From Mesotaenium endlicherianum (Eukaryota): a stretch of DNA of 64,000 nt. Each line of letters begins with the position of its first letter. The first letter of the stretch is position 1. Below the pieces are notes generated by a model. That model saw nothing but the letters and a program-made list of their open reading frames with translations, was not told the origin of the DNA and did not search any database. The DNA lies in NCBI GenBank assembly GCA_009602735.1, contig WELA01002202.1, positions 1-64,000 of the forward strand. Reading direction: 5' to 3'. The position numbers and the translations under genes are program-made. This document shows, piece after piece, positions 8,667 to 33,340 of this stretch.

Positions 8667-8667
8667 A

Positions 8668-8779: not shown

Positions 8780-10456
8780 TTAAGGGGTTGTTCCTGGGGC
8801 TTCAGGATCAGGAGACGGAGATCTGGACCTAGATCTGGACAGCCCTCTAGGTCTGTCAGCTGGCCTTCTAAAGAACCCTGTTTGCTCTAAAGTTGGCCCT
8901 CGAGGAGAACGGAGGATGGTGGCCTGCTCTTCAACCACTTGGGTGTTGATTCCCACATAGACAGGCATTCCAGTAGGATGCTGAAATACATTGGCTAGAG
9001 GTACATGCCCCTGAGCGGAGGGGGAGGCTGGCATACCTCTGGCCCACCCGCGTGTCCCTCTTCTGGCACCCCTGTCCTCTGGGGATTTCTGTCTGTGTCT
9101 GCTGCCCAGTACAGTCAGATCAGCTTCTTCCCCTGCTTGGGCAGGTGGGCTGGGGGAGCGAGCGCGGGGTCCAGTTGTCGCCATAACGGGGATCACATTC
9201 CAAACACCTGATCGTGGTTCTTTAAGAAGCGCCCCTGCCTGTCCCTGGGTATCCTGAGTACCTGCTGCTGATGCTTCTCCTCTGCCTTGTTCTTCTTCCT
9301 CATCCTCCTCATCCTCCTCCTCGGAGAGAGTAGGGGTCTCGTCCACTAAGTCGTCCTGCTCCCTAGTAGACATGGAGTAGTCTACCGACCTCCCTTTCTT
9401 AGGGCGCGCTGGAGGTTGCTTGGCCTTCAGCCTACTGATATCTATCCGGCCTGCATTCTTTGCCCATTTGACAAAGGCATGCTTTCCCTTAGAGAAGTAC
9501 TCTCTTCCCCTCCTCCTATGTTCCTTGGTCTCTGCATTCATATTGCTCAGGCATCCATTCAGCCTGGGGTCCCAAGGGGCAATGTGAGGTGGTAGGATGA
9601 GATAGCCGTCTAGGCCATAGTGGAAGTCATCCGGTTGGGCTCGGTCACACTCCTGCTTCTTATTTGTGACGGTCATCCACCTCCAGTCTGTTGGCTGCTG
9701 GTAGTACTGGGGTCCGTGCTCAGCCTTCCTCAGTTTACACGGGAACCAGTGGGGAGAGAACATCTGCTGTCCTGCTTCCCTGGCCAAGTACTCCCAGCTC
9801 CTTCTCTCAACTTCATTGTAAGCTGGCAGGAGTGTGAGGTAGAATACCGTATCCTTAAAGCTATCGGGCCGCATGCTCACCATCCGGATGAGTCTCTGAT
9901 CTCCCACTATTCCCGGTATGGGGACCGGCTTGTCCTCTGAATCATCTGCGAGATACCGGGCCTGCTCTGCTGTATAGCCCACCATCTTAGCATAATCTTC
10001 GTAAAGGACCACGCCGGTGTGTGTCTCGATGTACCTGTCCAGTGCTGTAGCTCCTTCCTTCTGTAGCAGTGTTGTCTGTTCCAGCCTGTTGATCTCCTGG
10101 GCTGCCAGCAATGCTTCCTTCAGGTTATCGAAGTTTTGGCCACCCACCACAGTATACCTGTAAGTGGCCAAGCTCTTCTGTCTGTCCGCTTCAATCTTTT
10201 TTCTTTTCTCCTCTTCTGCCGCTGCCGCTTCTTCTTGCTGTTTCTTCTGTCTCTCCTCCTCAGCCTTCCTGAGGTTTTCCGCTTCCTGATCCTTCTTCCT
10301 CTGTGCCTCTTCTGCCGCCTCTTGTTGCTTGCGGACCCTTTCTTGTTCTCTCCTGGTGAGGGACGTCGCCGCCAGCTCCTTCTGGTATTGCTCCATTGTC
10401 CTCCTGGCTTCTTCTGCCTTGCGCTTTCTGTCCTCCTTTTGTGTGGTGGGCGCCAT
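8780..10456 (-). CDS. Retrotransposon ORF3, ~558 aa, unknown function (charged coiled-coil N-terminus, conserved globular core, acidic and RS-rich C-terminus)
   Basis: Uninterrupted ORF between pol and the PPT. Homologous remnants at 34581-36136 (-) and ~47030-48294 (+). The ATG at 10456 follows a putative splice acceptor. Confidence 0.85.
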   Translation of the reverse strand: MAPTTQKEDRKRKAEEARRTMEQYQKELAATSLTRREQERVRKQQEAAEEAQRKKDQEAENLRKAEEERQKKQQEEAAAAEEEKRKKIEADRQKSLATYRYTVVGGQNFDNLKEALLAAQEINRLEQTTLLQKEGATALDRYIETHTGVVLYEDYAKMVGYTAEQARYLADDSEDKPVPIPGIVGDQRLIRMVSMRPDSFKDTVFYLTLLPAYNEVERRSWEYLAREAGQQMFSPHWFPCKLRKAEHGPQYYQQPTDWRWMTVTNKKQECDRAQPDDFHYGLDGYLILPPHIAPWDPRLNGCLSNMNAETKEHRRRGREYFSKGKHAFVKWAKNAGRIDISRLKAKQPPARPKKGRSVDYSMSTREQDDLVDETPTLSEEEDEEDEEEEQGRGEASAAGTQDTQGQAGALLKEPRSGVWNVIPVMATTGPRARSPSPPAQAGEEADLTVLGSRHRQKSPEDRGARRGTRGWARGMPASPSAQGHVPLANVFQHPTGMPVYVGINTQVVEEQATILRSPRGPTLEQTGFFRRPADRPRGLSRSRSRSPSPDPEAPGTTP

Positions 10457-10723
10457 CCTGCACATGTAACCAGGGCACAAGTTAGTAGGATATGGACCTT
10501 TGTCATAGGGATTGCAGGAAGTATGTTAGTATTTAGTATAGTGGCTTCGCTGCTGTTTACCTTACAGGATGATTGCTAAAAGTTGACGTAGTTGCGATGC
10601 GCTACACATAAACGTATGAGTGTGTTTTTATCGCTCTCGCTCACTAACTGTCATATATTTTCCCCTCCAACTTAAATGGAGACAGGACCGCCTGTCACCT
10701 TCCCGTGTCAACTGAAATGACAG

Positions 10724-13700: not shown

Positions 13701-14533
13701 GGGCTTACCTTTTTCTCAACCACTTCTTCAGGTTGAGGAGGTACCTCTCTTAGCAGCAGACAGAACATTCTGTCTTCCTTCTGGTTCCAGCTTTTGACGA
13801 ACTCCATTGCATTCAGCAACTTGCATCCTTCTGGAAGCCTCTTCTTTTCCTTCATTTGCCATCCACACAGGACAAGAGGAAGAGCACTGGTGGGTGCCAA
13901 GTCAGTCTGCCCATCACTGGCTCCTCTCACTTTAACTGTACCTCTGCTCCAACACACTTCAGCTTGATGTCTATTAAGCCAGGACCTGCCTAGCACGAGA
14001 TCATAAAAGCCAGTGTTGAGTACCTCAAATGTAAGCGTTTCAGTTAGAACTGCAATGCCAGAACCTAACTGGACCTCAATAGGCTTGGTTATAACTCCTC
14101 CCGGGATACTTGAGGCATCTCCAAGGAATATTTTTCTATTCCCTTGGGTGACAGTAGGCAGCCTTAGCCGCTTAACTAAGTCCTTGTGAATAAAAGTATG
14201 TGACGCCCCTCCGTCAACAAATGCCCTCACCTTCCTACCTGCAATCATGCAATGCAGTAGGATAGGGGGGACTGTCTTTTCCTGACTTTCGCATTGTTCT
14301 CCTGACGTAGCAAAGAAATGTTGGACATCAGGTGGAACAAGAGCATCCAGAGTGTGCACTCTCTGGACGTCTATATTACTGATGGTCTCCTTTATCTGTT
14401 TGTCAGGCATGCATAGTGAATCCAGTTCAGCAGGACCCATAATACCTGCTACGAGGGCAGCTAGTGACGACTCACTATCTCTAGCATCCTCACAGTCAGT
14501 AGACTGGATTACTGACTGTTGCTGTCTTTTAAA
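10724..14533 (-). CDS. pol: Pol polyprotein (protease, RT, RNase H, integrase, chromodomain), probably entered by -1 frameshift
   Basis: 1238-aa ORF from the ATG at 14440; the frame is open back through the slippery site. Motifs [43 protein letters not shown] and [20 protein letters not shown]. Confidence 0.97.
14492..14533 (-). promoter_or_regulatory. -1 programmed ribosomal frameshift signal (U UUA AAA + 7-nt spacer + 10-bp hairpin)
   Basis: Heptamer at 14527-14533 is in gag phase. Stem ACAGTCAGTA/TACTGACTGT at 14492-14519. Pol is in the -1 frame. Confidence 0.8.
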
Positions 14534-15987
14534 GGCTGGTCTTTTCTCTCGACCTTAGGCAGGTGCTTGACCGGACACTGTTCTCTGTAGTGGCCTTTCT
14601 GCTGACAATGGTAGCAAGTAGATTTTGCTGAGGCTGGTCTCGGCTTAGTCCTACCACCACCCCTTCCATAGCCACCTCGAGAGGGACCACCTCTACCTCT
14701 AGACTGAATAGCATTGTACTCATACTCATATTCATCACCCTGATTATCCTCAGCCTGGTCTCCTTCAACTGCATTGTAGGAACCGTGGGGCTTTTTGACA
14801 ATCTTAGACACCAAAGCGTTACTCTGGCGCTTGTGATTGAACTGCTGCTGATCCCAGGCGTCAGCATCCTGGATCAAGTCAGCCAGTTTCTCATACTTTT
14901 TCTCAGCAAAATGACCAGAGACCTCGGATTTCAAGCCATACCTGAAGTATGCTATCCTATACCGTTCTGGCAAATCAGGCTGCTTCATCATGTTCTCTTG
15001 GAACTTTTGAGCAAACTCAGCAACTGAAGTGGTCTGCTTCAGTGTCAGGGAGATCATCGCATAGATAGCTTTCTCCTGCTGGTTGATGACATCAAACTTC
15101 TCATGCAACTTCTCGACAAACTCTACCCACGTAGGGTCACCGAGTTGCCGAGCCTTACGCTCTTCCTTCCAGTAAAGCCACCAGTCTGCGGCACTGCCTT
15201 TCAGTAGCGCACCGGTGTGCCTGACCTTCTCGTAATCTTGCAGTTCTGGGTAGTTCTCCAGCCACTGCTCAACATCCGCGAGAAACTTGATCAGGTAATA
15301 TTTTCTGTTTCCCTCAGGATCATAGTCCTGGGGAGGTTTCGGCTTGGGCTTACTAGGCCCTCGGCCACCACCACTAGTGGTGTGAGACCCCAGTTGGTCT
15401 CTGTCCCGGAGTAGGGACATTATGATTCTTTTGTCCTCCTGCTGGGACTGATACATGGTCGCCATTTGCGACTGCATCTGAACGAACAATGCTCCCAAGT
15501 CTACATTTTGGGGTGGTAGATTAGCAAATGCAGCAGCAGCATTGGCATCTACTCGCTGAGTAGTGTCCTCAACAATCCCTCTTGCTCCTGCAGCAGCAAT
15601 TCCTGCCGCATTCAGCCGGTCACGTATTTGACCTAGGGGTACATTGAGTTGTACGGCAGGAGGTGGGTTCAGAACATTGGCCCTTGATGCCATAAGTTCT
15701 TCAACAGTGCGCTCGTCAGCTGGCTGTCCTTCCCTCCTTTGTATATCTTCAGCGGCCTTTGCTACTTGTTCAGCTTCTAGTCTGGCTATCTCCTCCTCAG
15801 CTTGCTGAGCTGCGACTGAGGCAATAGCAGCTGCCTCATCTGCAGCCTCCCTAGCTGCAGTATCCGCTACTGCTTCCGAATAGGTACGGTTTCCCGCTAC
15901 ATGGCTTTCCGCCTGGTTTTCGACATTCTCGTTATCCTGGTTCTCCATGTCTCGGGAGTTGCTAGTTTGAGACCTTGTCCTTACCAT
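14509..15987 (-). CDS. gag: Gag polyprotein, 492 aa
   Basis: [28 protein letters not shown], an RGG-rich segment and a CX2CX4HX4C knuckle ([14 protein letters not shown]). Confidence 0.95.
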
Positions 15988-16008
15988 ACAAAGAAGACTG
16001 TGATAACT

Positions 16009-16020
16009 GCTCCGATACCA
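16009..16020 (-). promoter_or_regulatory. Primer-binding site (initiator tRNA-Met type) of element A
   Basis: TGGTATCGGAGC, one base after the LTR end. Confidence 0.9.
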
Positions 16021-16021
16021 C

Positions 16022-16741
16022 TGAAATGAATCGACTTACCAAATAGGCGATTAACAATTAATAAAGATCTTTATATCAGCAAGTAATCTTTATGGTATTT
16101 TCCGTTAACTGGTTAAACGGCAAAGGACAACACACTAGCAGTGAATAATACTCGTAAGTCAAATGCGAGTAAACTAGCATCAATAATGCAAATCAGTAAA
16201 CTCATACATAAGCAAGGTTAGAAGACAGTGCGTATCAATGGCTTCTCGCCTTGGATTCAGATCTCTCTCAGTAAGCTGTACAAGAGAGTTGGCCTCGTTT
16301 CCGAATGCCGAACTCGAGAGCAATGCCTAGCATATGTACATGGAATGAGTTTACTGTTCAACGGTCAGTGCGATGGCACTGCCTACCCGGGAGTTAACCA
16401 CGTTGGGAGGACCTCGGTTAACCAAATCCACCGCCATCTCCCATCATCCCGAATAGCCATCCATCATGGGGATGTCATCTGGCCATTCATCTAGCATGTC
16501 GTACTTAGATGCATATCAAGGCAGGTCGCTGCTACCGAGCACGGAAGTCAGCTGGCTGTCAAAGAATGTGTCAGCAAGCTGACTTAAGTTGACTTCAGCC
16601 TGCTGCTTTTGGCCGAGTCATTAAACTGATAATTATGTAAAGTCCAGCAGACTGACTATTAACTAAACTTCAGCAGGCTGAACTTCATTAACTATTAGAT
16701 TTAAATGAATATTATATCCACTAATATACTGATTCATTACA
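16022..16741 (-). repeat. Element A 5' LTR
   Basis: Direct repeat of 7949-8666; adjacent to the PBS. Confidence 0.97.
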
Positions 16742-19700
16742 GAGAAGCTCTAGTCCTCAAGCTCGCCTCTTTCTTGTGCCTTGTATTCGTGTGCATTTAT
16801 GGCACACTATGATAAGTGAATTAAGGGTTATAGATGAGTAAACGGAATTCATTATAAGGGCCAAGATTGCTCCCTGATTTCACACGCTTCCACCTATCTC
16901 TGATCTTATATATTTGATTGAAATATATTTATCTTGAATAAGCAAGATTGATTTCAGTGGTATCGGAGCTAAGTCCTTTCTTGAATGTCCGTGCTCGTCT
17001 TCTTTGTCTCATGAGGTAAGTGTGTGAGGCTTACTTGTGTGGTATGATGAGTCTAGGTGGAGCTTGGGAAGTGTATGATGTAGAGCATTGCACATCCTGT
17101 CCAGGATCCTTCCACTTGCTCATCTAGTGTGTCTCTGGACTCAATGTACTATGCGGCATACTAACTTGACTTCCTTAGCCTCTTGTGTACAGATCCACGC
17201 AACGAGAAGCCTAAAGTGGAGGCTTGATGGAAGAGGTGTCTGCAAGCATCAAGGGCAGCCTCAAGGGAGTTGCATCATAGCAAGCTAGATATGACTCATT
17301 TACCTCACTTGATCATAGTCGTTGTGTGTTGTTATATGCAATCCACGGCTAGAGTAGAGAGGGGTGTTCACTCCAGCGGTGCTAGAGGACTTGTTAGTCC
17401 GTTGTGCTATCCCTTCGAGCTTAAGCTTGTTGCTTTGCAAGAGACGTACCTCTCCCATTATTTGTGTGGCAATTAGGTTGAGGGAGCTTGAGTATGGCTG
17501 CATGTGTTGAGACATTGAGACAATACGTGCACACATGATTTACTAACTTAAGTTTCCAAGTATGGATTAACAACAGGTTATCCTCGCCACGGTCCAAGTG
17601 CACTACGTCGTCCACAAGCTTCAGTTAGCCGCAACTTCTATGTGAAGAGGCTTCGGCAGCAACAATGGCATCCTCCAGATACCCCCTACTCCCAACCGTG
17701 GCTGTGATATTGTGTGCTTCTCTCGTTTGTCACATTGTTTGTGCTCGGAGGATTTAGGGTATGTGCCTTGTGCTTGAATGCTTTGTATTAGACGGTGATT
17801 TGTGGTACTTGGTGGGATCGTAGGAGCTTGGGTTTAAGCTTAAGACGGGTTTAGTCAGTGTGCTGAGGTTTATGGATGCGGGTCTTATGTGATTGCTGAT
17901 TTAGGTTGAGTCAGCCTGCTGAATTATTTGACCTAATGTGGTTAAAGGGATTAAGGGATTGGGTTTATGGACGCAGTGGCTTTTCTTTGACTCGCTTTTA
18001 CTTTGCATGGTTTATTAAGGGTCCAAGAGCAGCCGCGGACAATGAGTACTTTGAGTGCTTGAGCTAAATGAGCTCTGGGTGTTGCCAGGCTATAGATCAG
18101 CATATCGGGACTTAGGTTGTACGGTGTGTTGACTGACGTATGGAAAGTCAACGTGGATACTAGAGGGGGCTTGACTACTTGCCTCGGGTCCAGTTGGCAA
18201 TTTGTTCTTGGATGCCACCTGTACACTTGGTGAAGTGTATGGAGGTTTGTGTCTTTGTTATAGGGACAAACTGGGCATATTAGCAGTGTGCTAAGTCTCT
18301 GCCGACCTCGCAGCGAACTGAGCTCGCTAGAGGCGCATGCTAGATAGCATGCAAGATGCATTTGTATATGCGTCAGGTGCATGGAATTTGCATCCCGGGT
18401 GCTAGAGGTAGTGGATCGCCGTTAGCATACCGTAGAGCAGGTGTAAAATGGGCCCTGCTGTAATAGATTCACCATGCACACCTAAGTAAAGATAGAAGAG
18501 ACCATCGACATTATAGACGATCTCGCAATGCATGGCTTGAATGATCTTGTTCAGTCTGATGCACAAACATTGTTCTTGCTAGCTTGGGGTTACAATGCGA
18601 AAGTCTTACCAATGATTTATGCACGTTGTTGTTATTGGCTTGCTAAGGGCTTGCTGCAATTGCAATAGGTGCCATGTATGTGCCTCTAGAGAGGAACTTA
18701 GTTTTGAGCTATGCTGAGTTTGCCCATTGTCATTGGTTGAGTCTATGTGATCCCAATGTTTGTTTCGCCCTCCCGGGAATCATGTAAGATGGAGTCATCA
18801 GATCTTGACTGGACTGATGCAACTAGAGTGTGGTGTTTACCACGCGTAGCTAAGCTCATGGAAGGCAACTTACACACTTGCTTGTTGTCTGTTCGACAGA
18901 CTGAGACCAGCAAGCAGAGTATGAAGCAATGGTGACATACAGGTCGAGAGAGGCCGAGGAGTTGGCATGCTGGACGTTGCCACGTGACGCTTCCCCACTT
19001 GTCCTCTGGGCAACTCCAGGCAGTAAGGCGTGAAGGAGGGAGTATCCTGAAACATCAAAACTGTGATATTGTTGGTTGTTTTTGTTCCCTTTTCACTTGG
19101 ATTGTTGACTCTCACTATTTGGTGGTTGTCATTTTGGCGTATGTCTTGCTAGGAATGACTGGTATGAGTCATTGTATGCATGCGTTGGTAGAGTCAGCTA
19201 ACTGAGCTACTCTTTGGTATCGGAGGAACTCGCTAATGGGGCCGGTTGTCTTTATCTCATAGCAAGCTATCTACACTTCCAAATGGAAGGGTGTAATACG
19301 CTGGCGAAGTTTGGGTTATTCATTTATAGAGCTTTGAAGTTTATGGTGAGAGGGTCTGAATGGTAGTTTACTTGTCCCTATGCCACTTTGGGCATTGCTC
19401 TAATCCGGATAAATGAACTTTTTTTGGGGGGGGGAGGGGGGGAACTTTCTTTCTTGCTTACTTGGGTGTTTGCACTGTGTGTCCTCTCTTAATTTTCCTT
19501 TGTTGATTCATCTCCACCCACTCGTACCGCCGCAATCCTCTGTGACTGTCACTCTGTGTGCTTCTTATGATGCCGAGTTGTAGGCACTTCTTGGTGTGCT
19601 TATGCGGTTAGAGCTGTCGGGTTGACAGCTATTTAAGTTGGGGAGAGGGAGATGAGATGTGTTTTAGGAGTATGCAGTAAGCTGTGCTTACCTGCATACT

Positions 19701-21070
19701 CAGCAGCAAGTGTATGTACTAATTGAGTCATACACTGCCACGTCCTATGTATGTACTGCATTAATATCAGGAGCATCAGTGACTGACTGGTGTAAACTGT
19801 GAGTTGCAGTACACTGTTGGAGCAAGTGTACGTACTAACTGAGTAAGTACATTGCCATAAGTTGGGATTGGGTAGCAATGATGCATGGCACATCGAGGAA
19901 CTGCTTGAGGTGACCAGCATGTTGCTCAAAACCATATGTTTCTTTGAACTTAGTCTTTTCTAAAAATGTGGTTAGAATTTGAAATTTTCTTGGGCTCATT
20001 CACCTGATGCTACTCATCTTGTAAGGGCATTCAATGCCATCAAATCAGTTGGTCTCCCTCGTCCTTCAGTACGCTGAATTTTGAGCAAGTACCTAAGTCA
20101 CAAGAAATTGCTTGTGAGAAGCTTTCAAGGTGTGAGCACGGCAGGAGTTGAAGACCAAAAGAAGGAGAATAGGCTTAGTTCAGTTGGCTGAGCCTTAATA
20201 ACATTCTTTCATTGTTTGACCTCGAAAGGAGGCTGTTCGATTTGGGTGTGGTTTCCATAGTGTGAGCTGCTCTATTGTGTCTTTCAGCTGGAAGGACTAT
20301 TGTGAGTAGGGGTAAGTCCATGCATGTCTTCAGTTATTGATGGTGAAGTCAGATGGTGGCTTGCAGGACAGTTTGCTGTGATTAATTTTTACTTGCATCG
20401 GGTAGGTGAATATATCACGCTCATGTTTTGTTTGCTTGCTTTGCTTCACCTAGTTAAATAATTGAATTGTATGCTGAGTGTTGTCGAGGCGACAACAATT
20501 TAAGCTGGGGAGATTGTAATGAATCAGTTCATTATTTATTTAATTAATTGCATGCATAAATACAACACTAAATATGTATTATGTCAATATACTCACAAGC
20601 GCGAGTTCATTTAAATGAATGTATGTCTGTGACGTTTCTGCTTTTCGAGAGGATCTTTCCTCGGTATTCAAGGAATATTCAATTCAAGTGGGGGAAAATC
20701 TGTATACTAGTGGAAATTGACGAATACTCGAAAGAGCGAAAGTGAAAACTAACGTAGAATGTGTGCTTGCGAGAGTTGCACTCACAATGACTGCAGGTAT
20801 TTATACTTGCACAACATGAGGCACTGGAGTGCTTCGAGTCACCACCTAGGGCACTGGTTCATGTTCAACGAAAACGGTCAAAGGGACGTATCCCATTCGG
20901 CCGAATGCTCGAAACGCGCAGTTGGCCGTTTGGAGACTTTTCGACAGTTTCCGAAAAACCGTTTCGCGCCAAACGGGCGTTTTCGCGTTCTCGCGACTTT
21001 CCGAAAAAGTCGCGATTGATCGCGGAGTCGCGTCCACATGCTTTCGTCATAAACCGGTAGTTTAAAAAGC

Positions 21071-21141
21071 TACTTTGGCCAATCGGTTAGGTGTGAACGT
21101 TTCAAACGAAAGTCGCCGGTTCGAATCCGCTCGGATGCAAA
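21071..21141 (+). other. tRNA-like A-box/B-box module inside the B LTR (antisense to the element)
   Basis: TGGCCAATCGG at 21076-21086 and GGTTCGAATCC at 21118-21128, at tRNA-like spacing. Degenerate copies at ~5190-5258 and ~26355-26425. The acceptor stem does not pair. Confidence 0.55.
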
Positions 21142-21702
21142 GCGACTTTGCACATTTCGTTTCGCTTGACTTTACGACTGTTTGTTCGTATTAATGATAC
21201 GACAGTTTCTTCGTATTACGACTAGTCCCGAAATCTGTGATTGTCCATTACTCGTAATAATGACAATCAAATTAACTTAATCAAACAATGATTAATCAAA
21301 TTATCATCTCATAATTATTCAAAGTAACTTTATGAATAATTATGTCGTACTTTTGCGAAGTAGTCGAATTACGTTACGACGCTTTTTGCAATAGTATCTT
21401 GGTCGTTTCGCCAATCGACCGGGAATTAATCGGCACACGTGTGTGGCAAATAATTCAATGTGATGCAATCATTTATCAAATAACTTATGATAAGTAGTAT
21501 AACGTATTTTAGGTAATTGGGAAAACGTCCCATATACGCCTAAAAAGCTCAAATTGTTACACTCCTCCTCCCTTAAAAGAACTTAACGTCCTCGTTAAGC
21601 GTACGTCTTTTAAGTCGCAGATGTGTCGATACTAGCCTTGACTAGCGGAAACCACTGGTGAGCGATTGGACTATGCATCATCACAGTGACGGAAAAGAGC
21701 AA

Positions 21703-24700
21703 TTACTTGGCCGCGTCTCTTTTGCGTTTGTTCCATGGCTTACGAAGAGCGCTTGGTAGCACACTTGCCTCGGCGCAAAGCTTTTGAGCATCAGCCCATT
21801 GTAAACAATATTGTTGGACCACGTCCTTACAATTAAGTAGGATTTCGTCCTGAGGTTCGTACGAGTTCCAACTGGAATCGTAATCTAGCCACTTTATCAA
21901 AAGCTCCACGCGTGGAGGTTTATGACGAGTGTAGCGGTGTCCTAAGACCTCCTCTACATCCCAGGCCTTATCATCATCGGCGAGTTCCAATTCCGATGCT
22001 TGTGGCTGATAGCGGCCATTGGACCTAAAACAGCTTCAGTAAACTGACATGGAACACAGGATGCGTTCGCCCCATGGATTTAGGCAAATTCAGTCGGTAT
22101 GCAACAGGTCCAACCTTTGCCATAACGATAAAAGGGCCTACCCAGCGAGGCAGAAGCTTGCGCTTTCCTGGGTGCTTGAGTTGGAGGTTTTGAGTTTGCA
22201 AAAATACTTTATTGCCAACTTGAAAACTTAACTCAGTCCTGTGCGTGTCAGCAAACTTTTTCTGCCGATCTCGAGCAGCGGCTAAAGCCAGCTTCGCGTT
22301 TTTGTGCACCTCTTGAAGAGAATGGACAAATAGGCGTGCACTTGGTACTCTCATGGTTGACAGCCCCGCCTCAGCGTAAACGACGCGCTTGAGAGGAGTG
22401 TGCGGATGTCGCCCTTAGTTAAGGAAAAATGGAGTTTCCTTAACACTTTCCTGATAAGCATTATTAACTGCGAACTCTGCGACTGAAAGGAGGGTATCCC
22501 AGTCGTCTTGGCGAGGATTCACATAATGCCTAAGGAACTGTTGCAGAACGCGGTTCATTCGTTCTGTCTGACCATCGGTCTGAGGATGGAAGCTAGTTGA
22601 CATCTTAAGTTTCGTGCCGAACAAACTTCCTGCCAGAAGTGGCTCGTAAATCTACTGTCATGATCACTTATGATTTCTTTCGGCATGCCATGCAACTTGA
22701 ACACGTGATCTACGAAGAGACGTGCGGTCTCGACGGCATCAAGTGCTGGGGTAGTGGCCACAAAGTGTACCATCTTAGTGAAACGATCCACGATCGTTAG
22801 CACCCCATTGTGTCCTCGATCGGTGGTAGGCAATTCAACGACAAAGTCGAGGCTTATGCTTTCCCAAGGAGCACATGCAAGTTCCAATGGTTGCAACTTC
22901 CCAGCGGGCAACGTATTGCTCGGCTTATTCCTCTGACATGTTGCGCAGTTGATGATGTACTCGGCAACATTAACCTTAAGGGACGGCCAAATGTGCCCTC
23001 GGCGCAAAGAGTGTGTGGTTTTGGTAATTCCATGATGACCTGAGTAAGGAGAGTCATGCGCTTCTCGTAGTAGCACATGTCTTACTCGGCCTTCTGGGAC
23101 AGCACTGCGCCCATTATGCCACCAAAAACCGTCCTCAAACGAAGAGTATGAGTGTTCTTTCCTTTTATCCATACTGTCCATCGTTACGGCTACACCGTTC
23201 AAGCCAGTACCCTGGAGATCTAGGAAAAACAGATCTTTGAGATAGCCCTCGTGAAATAGTTGATGCAGGTCAAGTATTTCCGAGTTATGCATGCTATCCA
23301 AATCGGGTGTGCCCGCGTCACCAGGCTGGTTGCGGTCAGACGTCTGGGAAGGTACAGCAGAATCAAGGGTGGCCGCCCTCGAAACCTGACCATTTCGTTC
23401 TCGCAAGCTCGCAACAGTCCCCAACATCAAGTGGTGGTGAGGAATTCGACTTAGAGAATCAGCAACATTGTTGCGGCCTGGGCGATACGCCCACTCAAAG
23501 TGGAATCGTTGCAAGAACTCAGACCATCTCGTTTGTCTCCTCGATAGCGTTGGCTGAATTTGAAAGAAAGTATTTGGGCAGTGGTCCGTAACCACTGTCA
23601 AACTTTTGCGGCCTTCCAAATAACATCGCCAAGCGTATATGACTGCCCAGAGCTCCTGCTCTGTCGTTGAGTAATTTTATTTGGCAGGTGTCGGCTTTCG
23701 ACTCTCAAAACTGATAGGCTGGCCTGCCTGCAGCAGTACAGCCCCTATTCCAACACCAGACGCATCAGCGACGACCTCGTAAGGCAAGTCGAGATTGGCT
23801 TATGAAAGAAGTGGCGCATTCATGAGTGCATACTTAATGCGCTCAAACGCATGTTGCGTATTCTCATCCCAAATGAACGTCTTATCTTTCCTTGTCGGAG
23901 CAGTGAGTGGCGCGGCCATCACTGAATAACCTTGCATAAACTTACAAAAGTAGTTAGCAAACCCGAGGAATGAACGTACAGTATGTACATCGGTTGGGAC
24001 AGGCCAGTCAGCGACACACTCTATCTTGGCTGGGTCAGGGCGCACCCCTTTCGAACCCACTATATGTCCCAGGTACAACAGTTCATCCTTTAGGAAGGAA
24101 CATTTCGTGAGCTGAGCGTACAGCTGCTGCTCACGAAGGATTTGCAACACCAACTCGAGGTGCTTGTAATGCTCGTCCCTGTTCTTTGAGTAGACGAGGA
24201 TATCGTTAAGGTAAACCTGGACGAATTTCCCCAAGTAAGGTCTAAACAAATCGTTCATGGTACTTTGGAATGTCGCTGGTGCATTGGTAAGTCCAAAACT
24301 TAGGACTTTGTATTGGAAATGCCCAATAGGCGTTCGAAACGCTGTTTTGGGGACATCCTTTGGTGTTATTCGAATCTGATGATAGCCTTGGGCTAAATCA
24401 AGCAAGGAGAACACGCATGCCCCCTGCAGCGAATCAAACGAATCATCAATGCGAGGCAACAAATAACGGTTCTTGACCGTTATGTTGTTCAGCGCACGAT
24501 AATCAATGCACATTCTAAGCGTCCCATCTTTTTTTTGGACAAAGAGGATGGGGGCCCCGAATGGAGAAGAGCTCGGCTCAATACAGCCTTTCTCCAGCAA
24601 GTCGCTAATTTGATCTTTCATCTCGGTCATTTCCAACGGGCTTAGGCGATAAATCGATCGCCAAGTCGGTTGAGAATCGGGAACGAGAGGGATGGTATGT

Positions 24701-25310
24701 CCAATACCCCTATCAGGCGGAAGCCCGGCTGGTATTTCAGTTGGAAACACTGACTTATACTTTTGCAAAGAGTAAAAAGGTCGGCTGTGAGTGTTTCTTC
24801 ATGACCAGTAGTGTCCAACATCGGTTCTTGCGCAAAGAGCGTAGTTGAAATTGCTGGGGAATCGGGTCTCAGTAATCCAAAGAAAACATTTTGACCGTGC
24901 TTTGCCAAACGTCGCGCTTGCTTTATGGACAATAGAAGAGTCTTCGAAGGACTTTCCAAGGCCATATCGGGCTTAAGGGACTAAAGAGAAATCTTCCTGG
25001 TCCCTTTGCGTACAATGCATGTCTTTTGATCGAAGTCAAGCAATGTACTTATTTGCGTAAGCCAATCATTATCCAAAACTGCGTCGATTCCATGCGGCAA
25101 TTCAGTTACGTAGAATTGTACACGCCCATGGAAGGACTGCACGCTGAGCGGTAATTTAAGCATTCCAGTAATGCAAGCTAACGAGCCATTGCCAAGGCAA
25201 AGAGTCTCGTCCTTGAGTATTGGAAACAACTTCATCCCTTGTGCAAAACGTGCATTAATGAAGCTTACTGACGCGCCTGAATCAATAGCTAGACAATAGC
25301 TATTTATCAC
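21703..25310 (-). pseudogene. Element B pol (protease, RT, RNase H, integrase, chromodomain), fragmented
   Basis: AIDSGASVSF; RT ORF 23800-24768 (LDLAQGYHQ, YLNDIL); [31 protein letters not shown]; chromodomain ORF 21703-21990. Confidence 0.95.
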
Positions 25311-28003
25311 AAATAAGGGCAGCGAATATAATCGACGCTAGCAAATATGCAGTGGCCGCAATAATGGTCGCTTGACCGATTACGGTACAAATCCCTGTCA
25401 AAGAGATGCTCGGAAAGACTAACACGGTGGTTAGACCACATGTAATCAACATGCCCACGATATGTTGTGTATCCGCGAACGGACATGGGCGGACGGACAA
25501 AACCCGAACGGTTGCGGAAACGAATACTATGCACATTTTGGGAGGTGTGGGTGACGAGCGTTCCGGCGAAAGTATCTCGTACGATCGAAGATCGACGGGC
25601 GACGAGCGCTGCGAGCCGGGCGGAGCCATAGGCGATTAAGTCGGCGACGGCCGAGTCGGCGCCGAGGCACCACGCGGCGAGACGCGAGGCCGGCGGGGTG
25701 AGTCGTCGTCGATGTAGATGATTTCGATCCGACGACCGCGAGCCATGGCGAACTGGAAATGAATCGGGGGCGAATCTATACAGAATCAAGAAATCGGTTA
25801 GATTCGACGACAGAATCCGGCAGAAAATGCGATAGATTTTCTGACCACAATAAAAAAAATAATAAAAAAAAATTCTTTGGAGAAACCGAGATCGGCTCCG
25901 ATACCAATGTGACGTTTCTGCTTTTTGAGAGGATCTTTTCTCGGTATTCAAGGAATATTTAATTCAAGTGGGAGGAAAATCTGTGTACTTGTGGAAATTG
26001 ATGAATACTCGAAAGAGCGAAAGTGAAAACTAACGTAGAATGTGTGCTTGTGAGAGTTGCACTCACAATGACTCTGCAGGTATTTATACCTGCACAACAT
26101 GAGGCACTGGAGTGCTTCGATTCACCACCTAGGGCACTGGTTCATGTTCAACGAAAACGGTCAAAGGGACGTGTCCCATTCGGCCGAATGCTCGAAACGC
26201 GCAGTTGGCCGTTTGGAGACTTTTCGACAGTTTCCGAAAAACCGTTTCGCGCCAACCGGGCGTTTTCGCGTTCTCGCGACTTTCCGAAAAAGTCGCGATT
26301 GATCGCGAAGTCGGGTACACATGCTTTCGTCATGAACCGGTAGTTTAAAAAGCTACTTTGGCCAATCGGTTAGGTGTGAACGTTTCAAACAAAAGTCGCG
26401 GATTCGAATCCGCTCGGATGCAAAGCGACTTTGCATATTTCGTTTCGTTTGACTTTACGACTGTTTGTTCGTATATTATGATACGACAGTTTCTTCGTAT
26501 TACGACTAGTCGTAATCCGAAATCTGTGATTGTCCATTATTCGTAATAATGACTATCAAAATAACTTAATCAAATAATGATTAATCAAATTATCATCTCA
26601 TAATTATTCAAAGTAACTGCATGAATAATTATGTCGTACTTTTGCAAAGTAGTCGAATTACGTTACGTCGCTTTTTGCAATAGTATCTCGGTCGTTTCGC
26701 CAATCGACCGGGAATTAATCGGCACACGTGTGTGGCGAATATTTCAATGTGATGCAATCATTTATCAAATAACTTATGATAAATAGTATTACGTATTTTA
26801 GGTGATTGGGAAAACGTCCCATATGCGCCTAAAAAGCTCAAATCGTTACAATGTCGATGTAATGCGAGTTTACTTACTTTGTCAAAAAGGTCAGCAGGAT
26901 GACTTTTGTATCATAGTGTAGTTTGCTGACCTTGTTGAAAAGGTCAGCAGGATGACTTTTGTATCATAGTATAGTTTGCTGAGATTTATATAGCAGTTAT
27001 ATATAGGATGTAATATCAGCAGGATGACACATAGTAAGCTCGCTGGATATTAGTCAGTATACTTAGCTTCAGTACGCTGAGAGTAGATAAATTCATTTAG
27101 ATTATTATTTGTAGATTGGCACATGTGACTGTAGTATACTGAAAGTCGGAAGGTCGACTGAGATTCGGTAAACCGATGTCCTACCAGTGTGGTTAACTCC
27201 TGGGTAGGCGGAGCCGTCGTCAGTCAACTGAACAATTAGGACTTTAGTTAACCGACCAATTAATATGGTCGTTATACCTAGATCCGTGGGTCCCAACTTA
27301 ACGGGTCTTCCACGAAACGGCGCACCTTGCGCCGTGGTCAACCAGGTGGTCACTAGGTACATAGCAGGCTGGGATCTCGTGGTCCCTCATTTTGGACAGT
27401 AGGCTTTACAGTCGGATTTCTACTTGCAAGTCATGTGTGCACTTTTGGGTTCGTTCTAATGACCATCCTTCACGGAAATAGACATGGCTGCTTTGTTTGC
27501 GCTTCAAATGGAGCGAACTAGAACTTTTCGGAAAGGTCTCGTCAAGATGCATCTGTTGCCGTTCAGTTTGCTCAGTTTGGAGCACTATTGACAGAGTTAT
27601 GCCCTCTGACAGTTTGGGGTCACACAGCGGACAGATTCCATGGTTTTGCACCTAAGTCAGTGGGATGTGTTTTAGCTACTTTATGGTCATCTGAATGAGA
27701 GCGCCTTTGCTATTCAGTCCCCTGACGTTGTGTATGTGCTTGTACATGCTTGTATGCCTGGTAGGCAAGAGGTCATGAGTTTCTAAACGAGAAGCTCTAG
27801 TCCTCAAGCTCGCCTCTTTCTTATGCCTTGTATTCGTGTGCAACTATGGCACACTACGATAAGTGAGTCAAGGGTTATAGATGAGTAAACGGAATTCATT
27901 ATAAGGGCCAAGATCGCTCCCTGATTTTACACGCTTCCACCTATCTCTGATCTTATATATGTGATTGATATATATTTATCTTGAATAAGCAAGATTCATT
28001 TCA

Positions 28004-29070
28004 TGTTGGCACCACATTGATCCCAATTGTCACTGGTCTTGGTCTCGGCATAGGCTTGTCAGTGAAGGTCAACAGTTGCCATGTCATGATTGTTTCCACC
28101 AACCAAGTCATAGAGTGCTGCCCAATCATGTTGCCATAAATCTTTGCAGCCTCATCTGATCCTACTGCACCAGCTATAAGCCGAGCTATGTTGTCGGGTA
28201 TGCCAAGGTTTTTGCCCTTTTCCATCGTGGTGGGCTCTCTCCACACGGCGTCTCTTTTATATATGTCTTTGACCATTCCTGGTCCACCTTCGCTGAAGGC
28301 TTGGGATCCTGTATATGTTGGAAAGGTAGGCAGTACCACTCTTGGCTGACCTGGTTCGTTAATGACACACTGTGGATAGGAATCCCTCCGGGTCACTGAT
28401 CTGGTATGCACCGCCAGTGCCTTTTCCACTGTCAATGCTGTTGGTGATTGCCGTGTAATGTCCTCCATTTCTCTCAGAACCTCGATAGACATGCCGTTGG
28501 TCCAAAATATCCTGGCCCCATGAGACAATCCTCCGTGCTTGGCGTCGTTGATTAGCACATGATGGCCCAAAGTGGAGTCGAGCCATGGTTCTCCCGGCTT
28601 CATCTGCTTGTAGTCCATTCCTGGATGTACGTTCTCAATCACAAACACAGGTGGGTGATAGTGCTGACGTTCCCGCAGTATGGTGATGATTTTCACCATC
28701 CATCCCCAGTGTTGTGCTCGTGGATCACTAAATTCCCTCCTGTTTCCAGCTTGACAAAATGGTTGACAAGGGAATCCAACAAAGATCCAATCAATCTTGT
28801 AGCCATACAGGTATTTAGGCTTCACGTTTATAATGTTGCCTCCAGCAATGCGCTCAACATTGCTATATATAGGCGCCAACCCTTGAAATGATGCATTTGC
28901 CGCATCTGATTCATGACCTCTTAGAATGCTCGAAAAGCGTAGTCATCGTTGTCCACATACAGTACTTTGGCCACCTGTATTCCTCGCTGAATCAATGCTA
29001 TGGTCCCAGAGCCAAGTCCGGCGAATAATTCCAACACCACCACTCCCCTTTTGCGGAAAGGATCTTCCAT
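28004..29070 (-). pseudogene. C5-cytosine DNA methyltransferase domain within the E1 polyprotein
   Basis: Motif I VLELFAGLG (FAGLG at 29011-29025), II YVD, IV GFPCQPF..AG...DPR (28763-28777), VI FVIENV (ENV at 28628-28636), VIII-like HGARIFW, IX REPTTME..NLGIP, X YGN. One TAA at 28921-28923 and a frameshift near 28880. Confidence 0.9.
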
Positions 29071-29082
29071 CCTGACAATGCC

Positions 29083-30141
29083 TTACAGCAGCGGCTCCAC
29101 TCTAGGCATCAGATTTGCAGAGGAGGTAACTGGATAGGGTACTGGCAGCAGCTCTTGCGGGCCGTGGTCCCCATTACTCACAGTTTTCAGCTGCTTCATG
29201 ATCCGGGATTGCCATACCAAGGGTGTTGGCATGTTGATGCTTGTATAGCCTTCCTCTTCTTGCTTCATAAGGTTGTCGCTGGCTTCTGGGTACCTGTCAT
29301 TAACGTAGCAGTCTAGCAGTCCATAGTTTGCTTCTCCTATGCAAACCATTTTCACATGAATTTCTCCCGCCGGCTTCCTATCTGTTGACTGGTAAGTCAC
29401 TCTCTGTTTCCGCAGATCAATGATCATACCCAAGGGAATCAGTGCTTCTGTTCCCAAGAGAACATCATAGTTCTCAGCTTCCATCACTGTGCACTCCATG
29501 AATAGTGACGCCTCTTCAGGTTTCCTTGGATTTACTGTGATTTTCACAGGCTTGCGGGTAATCCCACAAGACTTTGAGACTTGTCCTGAGGCAGTTCTCG
29601 ACTGAAAAGGACTCTCTTTCATGTCCCTTGTCGTCAAACCTAAAGCTTTCACAGCTCGTTTTCCCAAAATGACTGGCTGTGCGCCTGCATCCAACAAAAT
29701 GTTGGGAGCTGCCCAGTTGTTGAAGATCAATGCACCATCCTTATTTTGCACCCTCACGGTGCTAAAATTGGTGGGCAATGAGGCGCTATTTGCACCTTCC
29801 TCAGCTATATCTAGCTGATGTCCGGCCTCTTCAATCGTGAATGGGTAGGTGATGTGCAAATCAGCGAGAGAAAGCAAAGGAGCATGCTGGATCTGATGTT
29901 CCACCAGAGCCTTCAGCTTCTCCAGTGAAAAACTGAATGTCTTGCGCGACCCGGGCCTGGTTTGTCGTAGCTGCGAGATCTCGTTTTCATCCAGAGTGAT
30001 CCGAAAAGTCTGAGGAAGCTTCCCAGTATTCTTTGGCACCAGACGGTTGTGATCTGCTTGCTCGGCAGCCGTTGCATTCACATCCTTTTTAGGCAGCCGC
30101 TTCTCGCCTTTGCAGACGGTCATAATAAACATCGGGCGCAT
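29083..30141 (-). pseudogene. E1 retropepsin-like aspartic protease region
   Basis: ILLDAGAQPVILG...TASG...YDVLLGTEAL. In frame with DNMT motif I across a single TAA at 29083-29085. Confidence 0.85.
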
Positions 30142-31700
30142 TTAGCATTGCAAACTGTGCTTTCAACTCAGCGATTTCTGCACTCAAAGCTTCATACTTC
30201 TGCTTACCCTTGCGATTACCAGAGCCACCCTTTTCTTTCTTTTTCTCTTTGTCTGCCTCTTTCGTGGCAGCATTTGCCCAGGGCGGCTTTAAATTTGGAT
30301 TCTTAGACCAGCACTCATCTTCCGAGTGTCCCTTCTTACTGCAATGTGCGCAAATCTGCGCTTTGCTAGCGAATAGTTGCTTAGCATCTGGGTACGAACA
30401 GTCTCTCTTCTGATGTCCTAATTTCCCGCAATTCCAACAACTCTCTGCTGTTTCAGCAGTGTTGGCGTGCTTAGCAAACTTATTGAAAGACCCGCTCTTT
30501 TTCTTATATTGAAAATTAGAGCTGTTGGCCTTAGGCGAAGAGAATTCCTCTCTCCTCTCAGGAGCCATACTTTACCTTCTTCGACATTACGTGCTATTTT
30601 AGCCGTCTTGTCGATGTCCCAGTCAATCCCGTGCTTTGCGGACAGATGTGGCCTGACTTCACGATCTGTTTGCCCAAGCACAACAGAAACTTGTCAGCCA
30701 CTATTCTGGGCTCGTATATTTTTGCCTCTTTGGCGAGGTCTACCAATCTGGATTTGACCTCCATGACTGTCTCGTTCTTTTGACGAACAAAATGCACATA
30801 ACGGTGCACTTTAAGACTGCGATCCTGTGGGAATCGTGCTTCAAGCAACTTGAAGAAACGACGCAGGCAATGCGTGGAGTCTAGCTGGTCATCCCCAGCC
30901 TCCATATCCTTACGACAGCTAGCCAAGGCTTGCGCATGGCTTGCCTCTGTTGTGGCGCTATCGCTTTGCTGACCATTGAGAGGTGTAGCTCTGCGTGTTA
31001 CTCGTTCTTGAGCTTTAGCAATCTTTTCAGATAGTTCTGCACACACCTTTCGCAATTTTGCTACAGAGCCGACATCATCATCTTAAGTGGCAGCCTTCCG
31101 CTGGCCCTCAGTGAGTTGCCTCATGGCCAGTGTTAATTCTTGTGTTAGTGCAGCTAAGTCTATGTTCTCAACAGGTGCAGATGTCACTGTTCTTCTTGAA
31201 GATAAAGCGGACATTCGGGCTTTCGCAGCCTCTTTCTGGATTTTTAAATCCCTAGCCCTTTTTTGTTCTACAAACGCCCATTCCTGGGTGAGGTCCTCAT
31301 CCTTCCGGAATTTGTGATATAACAGCAGGGTATCCTTGTCCAAGTACTGAACCAAGCCTATAAATGCGACAAATTGCGTACAAAAAGAATCCTTCCGAAT
31401 CTTCTCAAAGAATTATGCCCAATAGATCTCATCAAACTCTTCGAAAGTGAAACCATTTTCGCTGGTTCGTCCACTAAAACACTTTGCAGACAGCTTGAAC
31501 TTACGATTTTCATCCTGATCATCACCGGCCATTTCGAACGGTGAACAGGACTCACTGAATCTTCCCCACACGTCTTGCTCTTTGCCCAAATCAGGTACAA
31601 AGGCTCGTGTATTATCTGGGTTCTCACCGCTTGCAGAGTTATGACGAGACTCGTCTCTCGACGTTTCCTCGCTCCACCGGTTGTCAGTATGCTCAGACGT
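30089..31700 (-). pseudogene. E1 gag remnant with two zinc knuckles
   Basis: MHR-like FVRQKNETVMEVKSRLVDLA; knuckles CWNCGKLGHQKRDC and CAHCSKKGHSEDEC. Broken by stops and frameshifts; the start is approximate. Confidence 0.85.
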
Positions 31701-33140
31701 CTCACTTTCTTGTAGACTCTAGCTAGATTCAAAACCTTCTTCAGGCTCCACAGAGTGGTAGAGTCTTCCACTCCTCAACCGCATATATAGTTGAATTTCT
31801 CCGGGTCCCCTTCCAGGTTGAATACCGGCAGCCTTTACAGGCCTCGATCCCCAACTGACTTGGGAATTCTTGTTCACCTGAACCAATCAACCGAAGTTCT
31901 TAGAAGTAGGACAGAAGCGTCCTACTTCCACACAGGCTTTTGCCCAAGTTGAGGGTTTACATAATGAACAAGTTTGTAGTTTGCAGAAATCACGTCTAAG
32001 CAGCTTAACAGGCCATGTCAAGTTCAAAAAATATCGCACTTCAAGGCTTTCGCTTAACTTCCACGAGTCACAGCTTACAAAACTCTGAACTGCACATCTA
32101 TGCTGGCCTGGTCTGAGCTCTTCGCTCAACACCGCGCCTTAACAGCTCTTCACTGCTTAGCTAGGCTCACTCAGTTCTTCACTGAGGCTTTTGCTTGTTA
32201 ATACTACTCTTGCTATCAGCAATTCAACAATGGAGAATTCTGAGAACTTGGAAACTAACACAGCACTCACCATTTTAAGTGACCTTGCACGCTGGTGGCG
32301 TTTGACCCAAATTTGTGCTAATCTTCTAATTGATTCTATTCTGCAGCTCTCTACTTTCTACCAGCGAGATCCTCTCTTGGGAACTCCTGAGGTCTAACCT
32401 TTCTATGATACACTTTAGGAAGAAATCTTCCAGCGTCGGTAGAAGCGTGGCGCCCTGGCTCTTTTATGGCCTTGGGAACTCCTTCTTCTTCGCGCTCCTT
32501 TTGCTTCCTTAGCTTCCTTCGACAACCATGCGAGCAAGAATGAGGCAGCTTCAGGCAGGGCTCGTGCCTTTCACAGGCACCACACATTATCCTCTCTTGA
32601 GAATGCCAATGCTTAGCCACCGCGCTTTGCTTGCTTGCCGTCCTTACCCGGCAGCTCTCTCATAGCTTAGAAGTTGTCATTCAGCATGCATGCATGCATG
32701 CATTGGGATTGTTGCGCTTGACCACTTAGCCTTCCAGCTGGCAATCACGCCTATGTGGCTGGCTGGCAGCGTTTAGGATGAACGCTCAGGTCGTGACCAG
32801 TCACCTAAGGGCCTAGCCGAGGCGGCACACAACGCCCTCTGCAACATCCCTGCTGTACTTGGCTTGGATAGCTGATTGATCAGTACCTTTCTTGGCACTT
32901 GCTAGTCTGGCTCATTGCTGGTTCCATCTCCCTAGCCTTTCGGCTGACCGCTCGGTCCACATCCCCATCCCGTCCTGGGTGTGGGTGTGACGTGTCGTGA
33001 CCACTTTGATAGTGACAACGACTTCAACACGGCCGCTGACTCGGTCCTCTGGTCGGTGAGTCAATGCTGACTTCCCGTACCTGGGCGGCCGTGACTTGCG
33101 CTGCGCGTGCGGCACCGTCAAGTGGACAGCAGTCGCGACA

Positions 33141-33340
33141 GTAGTCGAATCACTTTACGTCGCTTTTTGCAATAGCAAAAAGCTTTGCTAATCGACCAGG
33201 AATTAGTCGGCACACAAGTGTGGCGATTAATGGATCAAGATGCAATCATTTATCAAACAACATATTGATAAATAGGGTAACGTATTTTAGGTAATTGGGA
33301 AAACGTCCCGAATATGCCTAAAATAGCTCAAATTGTTACA
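33141..33340 (-). repeat. B' 5' LTR remnant
   Basis: Matches the last ~200 bp of the 4642-5681 LTR (GTAGTCGAAT...AAATAGCTC..TTACA). Confidence 0.85.

Follow-up and report, generated by a model that had tools for sequence, protein, structure and literature searches.

Retrotransposons that carry their own C5-cytosine DNA methyltransferase (DNMT), an enzyme that normally serves to silence them, have been published for Symbiodinium and for one charophyte, and that work treats the purpose of the domain as still open (PMC5890265). KnitGypsy-Dnmt3 of Klebsormidium nitens harbours an unrearranged Dnmt3-related domain in the Gypsy-type Pol of a streptophyte alga. DIRS-like repeats were described for the K. 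nitens element, its copies are silent or nearly so, and its enzyme showed no activity in yeast, a result given as inconclusive by the authors (PMC5890265). The Symbiodinium element SymbioDIRS-Dnmt3 methylates CG de novo in yeast; SymbioDIRS-Dnmt3 and SymbioLINE-Dnmt are likewise retrotransposons with a C5 methyltransferase, but they belong to other classes, DIRS and LINE (PMC5890265). The EpiLTRs of Cymbomonas and Euglena also carry a C5 methyltransferase, but theirs is sister to DNMT4 and is accompanied by DAM and a chromodomain, and the preprint sets EpiLTRs apart from streptophyte Gypsy-DNMT3 (bioRxiv 10.64898/2026.05.21.726589).

The locus reported here lies in a 64-kb stretch of Mesotaenium DNA (the window), in which a host exon matches a protein labelled Mesen1 (Mesotaenium endlicherianum) at 100 % identity. 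The locus shares with KnitGypsy-Dnmt3 the unrearranged domain in a Pol that is likely of Gypsy type, as well as the near silence of its copy. It differs in host class (Zygnematophyceae), in an identity of only ~27-30 % and in that no reverse transcriptase (RT) is seen in the window copy. It is best read as a new, divergent member of the Gypsy-DNMT3 kind, which is already known (PMC5890265). The methyltransferase is a family-wide part of a repeated Gag-protease retrotransposon; the window copy itself is dead, truncated and nearly silent, and it reveals no new mechanism.

Layout of the element and its lost 3' half

The initial annotation had described, on the minus strand, a Gag with two CCHC knuckles, a protease (LLDAGAQ) and, across one TAA, a methyltransferase with FAGLG, YVD, GFPCQ, ENV, RIFW, motif IX and GN. 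All of these were recovered on that strand and in the order Gag, knuckles, protease, methyltransferase, the frame being broken by two stops and one frameshift. The features are as follows.

33141..33340, minus: beginning (200 nt) of an older LTR of the B family; identity with the window's other B-family LTRs 81-86 %
32016..33140, minus: putative 5' LTR, TGTCG...TGACA, with 32016 as its probable inner end
32004..32015, minus: candidate primer-binding site (PBS), begins TGG, proposed from sequence only
30594..31532, minus: degenerate Gag with stops at 31415, 31085 and 30596; weak tblastn match to the Gag of the Closterium relative P0017 (E 3e-5)
30311..30439, minus: two CCHC zinc knuckles (30439-30398 and 30352-30311; PF00098, E 4.1e-6, and sequence)
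29419..29739, minus: retropepsin-type aspartic protease (PF13975, E 1.3e-6; local profile)
29083..29085, minus: in-frame TAA between protease linker and methyltransferase, read from the sequence and absent from other copies
28090..29050, minus: predicted C5-cytosine DNA methyltransferase, DNMT3-like family, motifs I-X unrearranged (PF00145, motifs, profile, structure model)
6898..28003, plus: nested LTR element X, target duplication TGTTG at 6893-6897 and 28004-28008
6490..6892, minus: in-frame continuation past the insertion, without similarity to RT; 134 codons, two of them stops (6802 and 6499)

The putative LTR begins with TG, and its CA abuts TGG at 32016/32015, which is a candidate LTR/PBS boundary. 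At its outer terminus, 33140, 79 contigs of DNA run X1 and 72 contigs of DNA run X2 extend into dissimilar flanks (agreement 0.38), and the element was likely inserted into the older B-family LTR that adjoins it. Gag starts at about 31532. The protease motif LLDAGAQ (29697-29677) shows D-A-G where relatives have D-S/T-G. Only the 5' end of the element is present: within the 64-kb window neither a second LTR nor its RT, RNase H, integrase, 3' LTR, polypurine tract (PPT) or target duplication was found, and Rfam and ARAGORN gave no matches over the window.

Element X, an insertion of ~21 kb, cuts the frame of the DNMT element just past the methyltransferase, and the frame picks up at 6892. Position 28003 is not where the open reading frame would naturally end; it owes its stop to the TG end of this nested element. 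The repeat at 28003 was also considered as the 3' LTR of the DNMT element and was ruled out, because it closes a plus-strand element, of which it is the 3' LTR and which has a PBS, a PPT and a target duplication of its own. The LTRs of element X are 96.7 % identical over 1261 nt, and both are interrupted by elements of the chromodomain type (A, about 7948-16741; B, 20628-26850). The continuation at 6490..6892 stops where it abuts the integrase tail of an older element of the B family, and this end of the frame likely reflects a deletion. No RT was found in the 184 residues past the methyltransferase domain, and the tail beyond the nested insertion gave no match past its first 29 residues among the proteins compared. 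The RT is missing from the window copy because of the nested insertion together with the likely deletion.

Methyltransferase domain and its relatives

Motif I, FAGLG (29025-29011), follows the TAA at 29085-29083 in the same frame, and YVD is found at 28959-28951, GFPCQ at 28777-28763, ENV at 28636-28628, HGARIFWTN (motif VIII) at 28522-28496, an EPT that resembles motif IX near 28237, and GN at 28135-28130. Motif VIII has a Gly at a position that is Arg in 90 % or more of the rows aligned. Motif I had been said to be hidden by two stops and a frameshift, which agrees with the stops at 29085 and 28923 (a second TAA, 28923-28921) and the frameshift near 28890. The profile proposed for checking, PF00145, matched the open reading frame 28001-28942 with E 4.9e-12 and 46.3 bits (cut-off 22). 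When the breaks were bridged with X, the translation aligned to positions 2-292 of 305 of a profile of relatives (E 6e-56). The order of motifs I-X is unrearranged and not of the DRM type. The domain lacks introns and is colinear with its relatives, and only one stop separates it from the protease, whose frame in Pol it shares.

The family profile matched DNMT3A/B/C with E 1.6e-24 to 6.7e-19, DRM with E 3.6e-12 to 1.1e-9 and HhaI with at best 4.7e-10. An AlphaFold model of a 294-residue part (pLDDT 82.5) matched, among the rows listed, C5-methyltransferases throughout, with TM-scores of 0.49-0.61 for DNMT3 chains and 0.46-0.57 for HhaI/HaeIII; Foldseek E-values rank HhaI first, whereas TM-score and rmsd favour DNMT3. 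A PDB search with the single sequence of the window domain gave weak matches led by DNMT2, HaeIII and HhaI and made no subfamily call. Relatedness to Dnmt3 is therefore likely at the level of the family profile and by TM-score and rmsd of the predicted structure, while the single window sequence does not set Dnmt3 apart from the other types.

The initial annotation was right to point to de Mendoza et al. 2018. K. nitens GAQ93235.1 shows the same knuckle-protease-DNMT order. This protein was the best match over protease and DNMT among 166 proteins compared, aligning over 558 residues at 27 %, and it may correspond to the figured KnitGypsy-Dnmt3. The Gag-protease-DNMT order occurs also in Closterium, Marchantia and Sphagnum. 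The protease-DNMT-RT Gypsy proteins of Marchantia polymorpha (e.g. Mp_4g09160), Sphagnum fallax and Closterium are annotated as hypothetical, and no description of them as DNMT elements was found in the literature searched. They lie on the window's side of the DNMT tree but are only about 25-28 % identical to it, and the Marchantia protein P0168 is the best overall match to the window over protease and DNMT (E 8e-51, 27 %). Among the 150 matches listed, 17, including GAQ93235.1 and Closterium proteins, have a protease-DNMT or DNMT-RT layout, and 60 have the layout RT-RNaseH-DNMT-integrase-PHD, the commoner one among those matches. The latter is exemplified by KAF8056149.1 of Scenedesmus sp. 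PABB004, a Gypsy protein with the same DNMT family as the window; its DNMT differs in being located between RNase H and integrase, and proteins of this type usually have a PHD finger after the integrase. The 30 top-ranked or long matches scanned with Pfam were all methyltransferase-only or retrotransposon proteins. An rve integrase is present in the relatives, and the domains listed for the 30 scanned include no chromodomain. A DIRS (tyrosine-recombinase) element was rejected on the presence of the protease in the window and of rve integrase in the relatives.

A word-index search with the window domain among fused proteins of 516-2000 aa yielded none from 748 candidates, which is weak evidence, and a pattern scan of metagenome contigs gave 34 pattern matches and no relative. 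An alignment scan of metagenomes kept 80 loci, of which only one (L001) has retrotransposon domains. L001 is LTR-bounded and has one in-frame stop between its DNMT and the RT behind it; its open reading frame shares 58-68 % identity with the proteins from Marchantia and Sphagnum.

It had been suggested that the DNMT occupies the place where RT would normally start. In this wording the suggestion found no support: RT comes after the DNMT, 104-315 residues further on in complete relatives (22 proteins), and also in L001. As RT, RNase H and integrase continue after the DNMT in complete relatives, including the complete Gag-PR-DNMT-RT-RH-INT proteins P0054 and P0160 and, with stops in the frame, L001, the domain is, by analogy with them, an insert before RT and not an RT replacement. 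Alternatively, the Mesotaenium family might be non-autonomous, consisting of Gag-protease-DNMT plus a tail, with its own RT and integrase absent and mobilisation in trans; its methyltransferase would then act either from the particle or upon the genome of the host. The stretch of 184 residues without RT would fit this, the stop at 6802 would leave a tail of ~80 residues, and 34 protease-DNMT relatives, K. nitens GAQ93235.1 among them, lack an RT within the same polypeptide, with tails that reach 514 aa. However, the frame stays open for ~100 codons past 6802 before it is cut by the junction with another element, DNMT-RT spacers reach 214-315 aa in 6 of the 22 relatives, many of the RT-less proteins are partial or from short contigs, and the RT of L001 lies behind one in-frame stop. 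A non-autonomous family is thus considered unlikely.

In the DNMT tree, which included no host DNMT3, the window domain was placed on the side of the split that holds GAQ93235.1 (SH-aLRT 97), on a long branch of 1.5-1.9 changes per column and in no starred small clade. FastTree with the bacterial outgroups placed the domain basally, next to these outgroups. The RNaseH-DNMT-integrase-PHD proteins formed a branch of their own, with 16 of 16 rows in the tree of DNMTs (SH-aLRT 97) and 15 of 16 in that of RTs (98/99), and the same subgroups were recovered in both. The RTs of DNMT-bearing relatives separated from the three other RTs of the window (100/100); the RT of the window family is not among the rows.

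The long branch and the basal position could point to an independent capture of a host DNMT3, viral or bacterial enzyme into the same Pol slot, with no link by descent to KnitGypsy-Dnmt3, and so could an identity of at most 30-37 % to any relative (best match 35 %). The tree tool flagged the join with the outgroups as a meeting of long branches, however, and the window domain shares with the retro-DNMTs the variable-region signature N-x-PGQPR..LPT..S-x-A..GPG..EPT. The alignment to K. nitens and Marchantia proteins is continuous over protease, linker and DNMT (E 1e-42 to 8e-51), and the Pfam-scanned matches, all 30 of which were methyltransferase-only or retrotransposon proteins, likewise speak against it. 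Such a capture is improbable. Whether the acquisition is known or new had been left undecided; GAQ93235.1 inclines the answer to the known kind.

A domain common to the copies of the family

About 20 different contigs of the DNA runs cover single places in the DNMT domain, as many as in the protease, and the summed depth in X1 was 7,600-20,900 over the methyltransferase bins against 13,600-19,300 over those of linker and protease. At the TAA at 29085 another letter is found in all of the covering depth, in X1 (20 contigs), X2 (19) and X13 (1). One contig under a further organism label bridges 28488-29328. With a coverage of the methyltransferase similar to that of the protease, and with a stop at 29085 that is not common to the copies, the domain belongs to the family. 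Insertion of a host methyltransferase gene or retrocopy once, in the window copy, which had been named as a possible refutation, is highly improbable: the window contains just one further Gag fragment of this family (33369-34460, 72 % identical), which lacks an adjacent DNMT but is cut off upstream of the knuckles and is thus silent on the domain, whereas the protease-like depth across copies largely refutes a single insertion, and the DNMT is in frame with the protease in a fusion common to relatives in several lineages.

Possible role of the methyltransferase

The window probably holds a dead copy of a repeated, likely Ty3/Gypsy family, with a likely DNMT3-type methyltransferase between protease and RT, whose intact copies would methylate their own cDNA. 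Ty3/Gypsy elements package their polyprotein along with Gag, and their protease cleaves it. By analogy with the relatives, intact copies would make the DNMT as part of Pol, RT, RNase H and integrase would follow it in full-length copies, and a single old capture of the DNMT may be common to the Klebsormidium, Closterium and bryophyte elements and the window family. Packaging and cleavage, as generally in Ty3/Gypsy elements, would place the DNMT beside the nascent cDNA; the enzyme might then methylate the element's own new cDNA, which could either shield this cDNA or dampen the new insertion.

A broader proposal can be made only tentatively, the odds being somewhat against it as a whole: a Gypsy lineage captured Dnmt3 once, in the distant past, and has retained it throughout the green plants (chlorophytes, Klebsormidium, Zygnematophyceae, liverworts, peat moss); a single change of place within Pol then produced the two layouts protease-DNMT-RT and RNaseH-DNMT-integrase-PHD. 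The Mesotaenium family would be a deep, highly amplified branch of this lineage, whose packaged enzyme methylates every new copy before it integrates. If true, some of the methylation on transposons in the sister group to land plants would be of the transposons' own making. The locus adds a repeated family from this algal group, in a species with public RNA data, and the database relatives make the DNMT-Gypsy lineage far wider than published, with two layouts. This eases testing of self-cDNA methylation through natural intact copies in Mesotaenium, Closterium and Marchantia.

No element-specific CpG depletion was seen: CpG observed/expected was 0.62 for the element and 0.53 for the DNMT domain, and the element was no lower than three of four neighbouring RT-bearing, DNMT-free elements (0.41, 0.43, 0.59 and 1.05). 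RNA coverage came from four runs that carry the same species label, 6-24 % of each being read; the methyltransferase bins had zero reads in three of them and a depth below 1 in two bins of the fourth. The RNA reads fell mainly on the putative LTR.

Domain order and decay of the element

The initial annotation had described Gag, two CCHC knuckles, a protease and a C5-cytosine methyltransferase (DNMT) in 28004-33140 (minus strand). All were found to be present in that order, with Gag in a degenerate state. A Pfam scan of 18 ORFs or pieces of the window included the proposed PF00145 check and yielded the following matches:

28001-28942, minus strand, ORF with C5-cytosine methyltransferase (PF00145, E 4.9e-12)
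29083-30141, minus strand, ORF with aspartic protease (PF13975, E 1.3e-6)
30089-30571, minus strand, ORF with CCHC knuckles (PF00098, E 4.1e-6)

The two stops and the frameshift suspected within the methyltransferase region were located as well (TAA at 29085, TAA at 28923, frameshift near 28890). Motif I (FAGLG) lies in the protease-linker frame, past the TAA at 29085, and the other two lesions sit between FAGLG and GFPCQ, ENV, motif VIII and motifs IX-X, in the motif numbering usual for C5-methyltransferases. With the letter X placed at the breaks, the domain matched a profile built on seven relatives, covering 2-292 of its 305 positions (E 6e-56). The copy itself is dead, because Gag has three stops, the protease triad is D-A-G and a glycine replaces the near-invariant arginine of motif VIII. 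The knuckle and protease frames overlap by ~50 nt (30089-30141) with a +1 shift, which may be programmed or due to decay, given that relatives have knuckles and protease in one ORF.

Relatives, layouts and possible origin of the methyltransferase

A phmmer search with the window's DNMT domain against 1.84 billion representatives gave 274 matches at E ≤0.001, the best being 35 % identical. Layouts were assigned by local profiles among the 150 matches listed. The DNMT follows the protease and/or precedes the reverse transcriptase (RT), as in the window, in 17 of these, and follows RNase H and/or precedes the integrase in 60; the remainder are the domain alone (72) or another arrangement (1). The protease-DNMT group takes in GAQ93235.1 of Klebsormidium nitens and six Closterium clusters (10 proteins looked up), and its order is seen in complete Gag-knuckle-protease-DNMT-RT-RNase H-integrase proteins (P0054 and P0160). 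Metagenome locus L001 encodes protease-DNMT-RT-RNase H-integrase flanked by direct repeats (94 % over the 307 nt compared), and a search with its DNMT ORF returned 60 proteins at 58-68 % identity, 15 of them named Marchantia polymorpha and one Sphagnum fallax.

For the element's family, the 64-kb window yielded neither a second LTR nor RT, RNase H or integrase. It is nevertheless unlikely that this family is non-autonomous: spacers between DNMT and RT span 104-315 aa in 22 proteins, and the 184 RT-free residues here, being within that range, therefore do not show a family without RT.

The RT-RNaseH-DNMT-integrase-PHD layout is represented by P0007, P0008, P0043 and others, among them a Scenedesmus protein; some also have G-patch or Tudor domains. 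This layout joins a methyl writer to a predicted chromatin reader, and no description of it was found in the literature searched. In P0064 the DNMT directly follows RT, with no RNase H detected between them, which makes it either a third layout or the result of a deletion.

When the window domain and 43 relatives were combined into a profile, its best PDB matches were DNMT3A, 3B and 3C (E 1.6e-24 to 6.7e-19), ahead of DRM (3.6e-12 to 1.1e-9) and HhaI (4.7e-10 at best); searched by itself, the window sequence matched only weakly and unspecifically. For the part downstream of the frameshift, the predicted structure (pLDDT 82.5) resembles C5-methyltransferases, with HhaI first by E-value and DNMT3 chains first by TM-score and rmsd. 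In a FastTree phylogeny of 115 rows, including 8 bacterial-type outgroups and excluding domains <270 aa and six near-duplicates, the window row was basal to the retro-DNMTs, with a long-branch warning. A quick IQ-TREE run with 44 hand-picked rows and no outgroup parted the two layouts by a single branch (SH-aLRT 97). The window row falls to the protease-DNMT side of that branch, where its position was not fixed. In an RT tree built from 31 DNMT-bearing relatives plus the three other RTs of the window, the subgroups of the DNMT tree reappeared, and 15 of the 16 rows with the RNaseH-DNMT-integrase layout formed one clade (98/99). These trees, in which host DNMT3s are absent and DNMT-free RTs number just three, would fit one possible history, a single old DNMT capture and a later shift of the domain within Pol. 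That the domain represents an independent capture is quite improbable.

Family copies, standing and proposed mechanism

Four DNA sequencing runs, of which X1 and X2 represent one sample, were aligned to 27700-33400 at 80 % likeness. From X1, 6,760 contigs aligned, leaving none of the 30 bins empty. Depth summed across the methyltransferase (7,600-20,900) was similar to that over linker and protease (13,600-19,300), such sums being no measure of copy number, and single places in either region were each covered by ~20 different contigs. At 29085 the entire covering depth in three runs carries a letter other than that of the window. The TAA there is therefore not a family trait, and the runs may lack this particular copy. 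Seventy-nine contigs pass 33140 into dissimilar flanks (agreement 0.38), which thus mark an element terminus and many insertion sites. A single contig under a further organism label covers 28488-29328. Of four RNA runs (6-24 % of each analysed), three had zero reads on the methyltransferase domain and the fourth a trace. The methyltransferase is real and part of the retrotransposon family; a one-off insertion is scarcely credible.

De Mendoza et al. 2018 (PMC5890265) described a Gypsy element of K. nitens whose Pol contains Dnmt3-related domains. Such elements in streptophytes are also mentioned in the accessible parts of PMC12344493 and bioRxiv 10.64898/2026.05.21.726589, where further hosts are not named. 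No description of DNMT elements of Mesotaenium, Closterium or bryophytes was found in the literature searched, which covered few subscription papers, nor in the accessible parts of PMC11244446, PMC10952607 and PMC6453930. The element has three of the features that define Gypsy-DNMT3 and is probably a divergent member of that kind, working in the same way. It adds a host class to this known kind, without any new mechanism.

In intact copies the methyltransferase would most likely be made within the Pol polyprotein. The enzyme would be packaged together with Gag and released by the protease, steps drawn from general Ty3/Gypsy biology, and once freed would methylate nascent cDNA. This proposal is based on the domain position, Ty3/Gypsy biology and the activity of SymbioDIRS-Dnmt3. 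The latter showed de novo CG activity in yeast; for the K. nitens enzyme the same assay showed no activity, a result called inconclusive (PMC5890265). That inactivity is against or neutral for the mechanism, as is the CpG depletion: three of the four DNMT-free neighbours are depleted at least as strongly as the element (observed/expected 0.53-0.62).

The nested locus and its surroundings

The window consists of nested LTR elements. Element X (6898-28003, plus strand), with LTRs 96.7 % identical to each other, is flanked by a TGTTG duplication (6893-6897 and 28004-28008), and its insertion explains why the frame of the DNMT element stops at 28003. The LTRs of X are themselves interrupted by A, a chromodomain-bearing Gypsy element, and by B. 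Past X the frame picks up at 6892 and runs 134 codons, with stops at 6802 and 6499; near 6484 this continuation meets the integrase tail of an older B-family element. At its other end the element begins with TG at 33140, within the first 200 nt of a B-family LTR. In the simplest reading, the element would have inserted into an old B-family element and a later deletion would have taken its 3' half. An inverted Gag fragment of its family (33369-34460, plus strand, 72 % identical) ends before the knuckles.

Element A (7948-16741, minus strand) looks intact, with LTRs 97 % identical and the coding order Gag, then PR-RT-RH-INT-SH3-chromo. Between Pol and the 3' LTR lies an additional ORF of 581 aa on the sense strand (8780-10525); it had no convincing Pfam match, and degenerate repeats of it occur at about 34600-36170 and 47160-48220. 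The interior of X (16957-20514) is just 3.6 kb, contains no RT by local profile and holds a remnant (18397-18605) resembling the protease-proximal region of A; X is likely non-autonomous. B (21562-25907) is without CpG depletion (observed/expected 1.05 vs 0.41-0.62 in neighbours).

Host gene exons occupy the GC-rich part of the window. Those at 59637-61690 (plus strand) likely encode a pentatricopeptide-repeat protein, which we take to be MRL1-like, and those at 51664-52125 (minus strand) presumably a D-2-hydroxyacid dehydrogenase, judged by a motif. The exon at 61379-61597 matches, with 100 % identity across 73 aa, a EukProt protein whose label, jgi/Mesen1, presumably denotes Mesotaenium endlicherianum (Zygnematophyceae); it was the one match among 7,997 scored.
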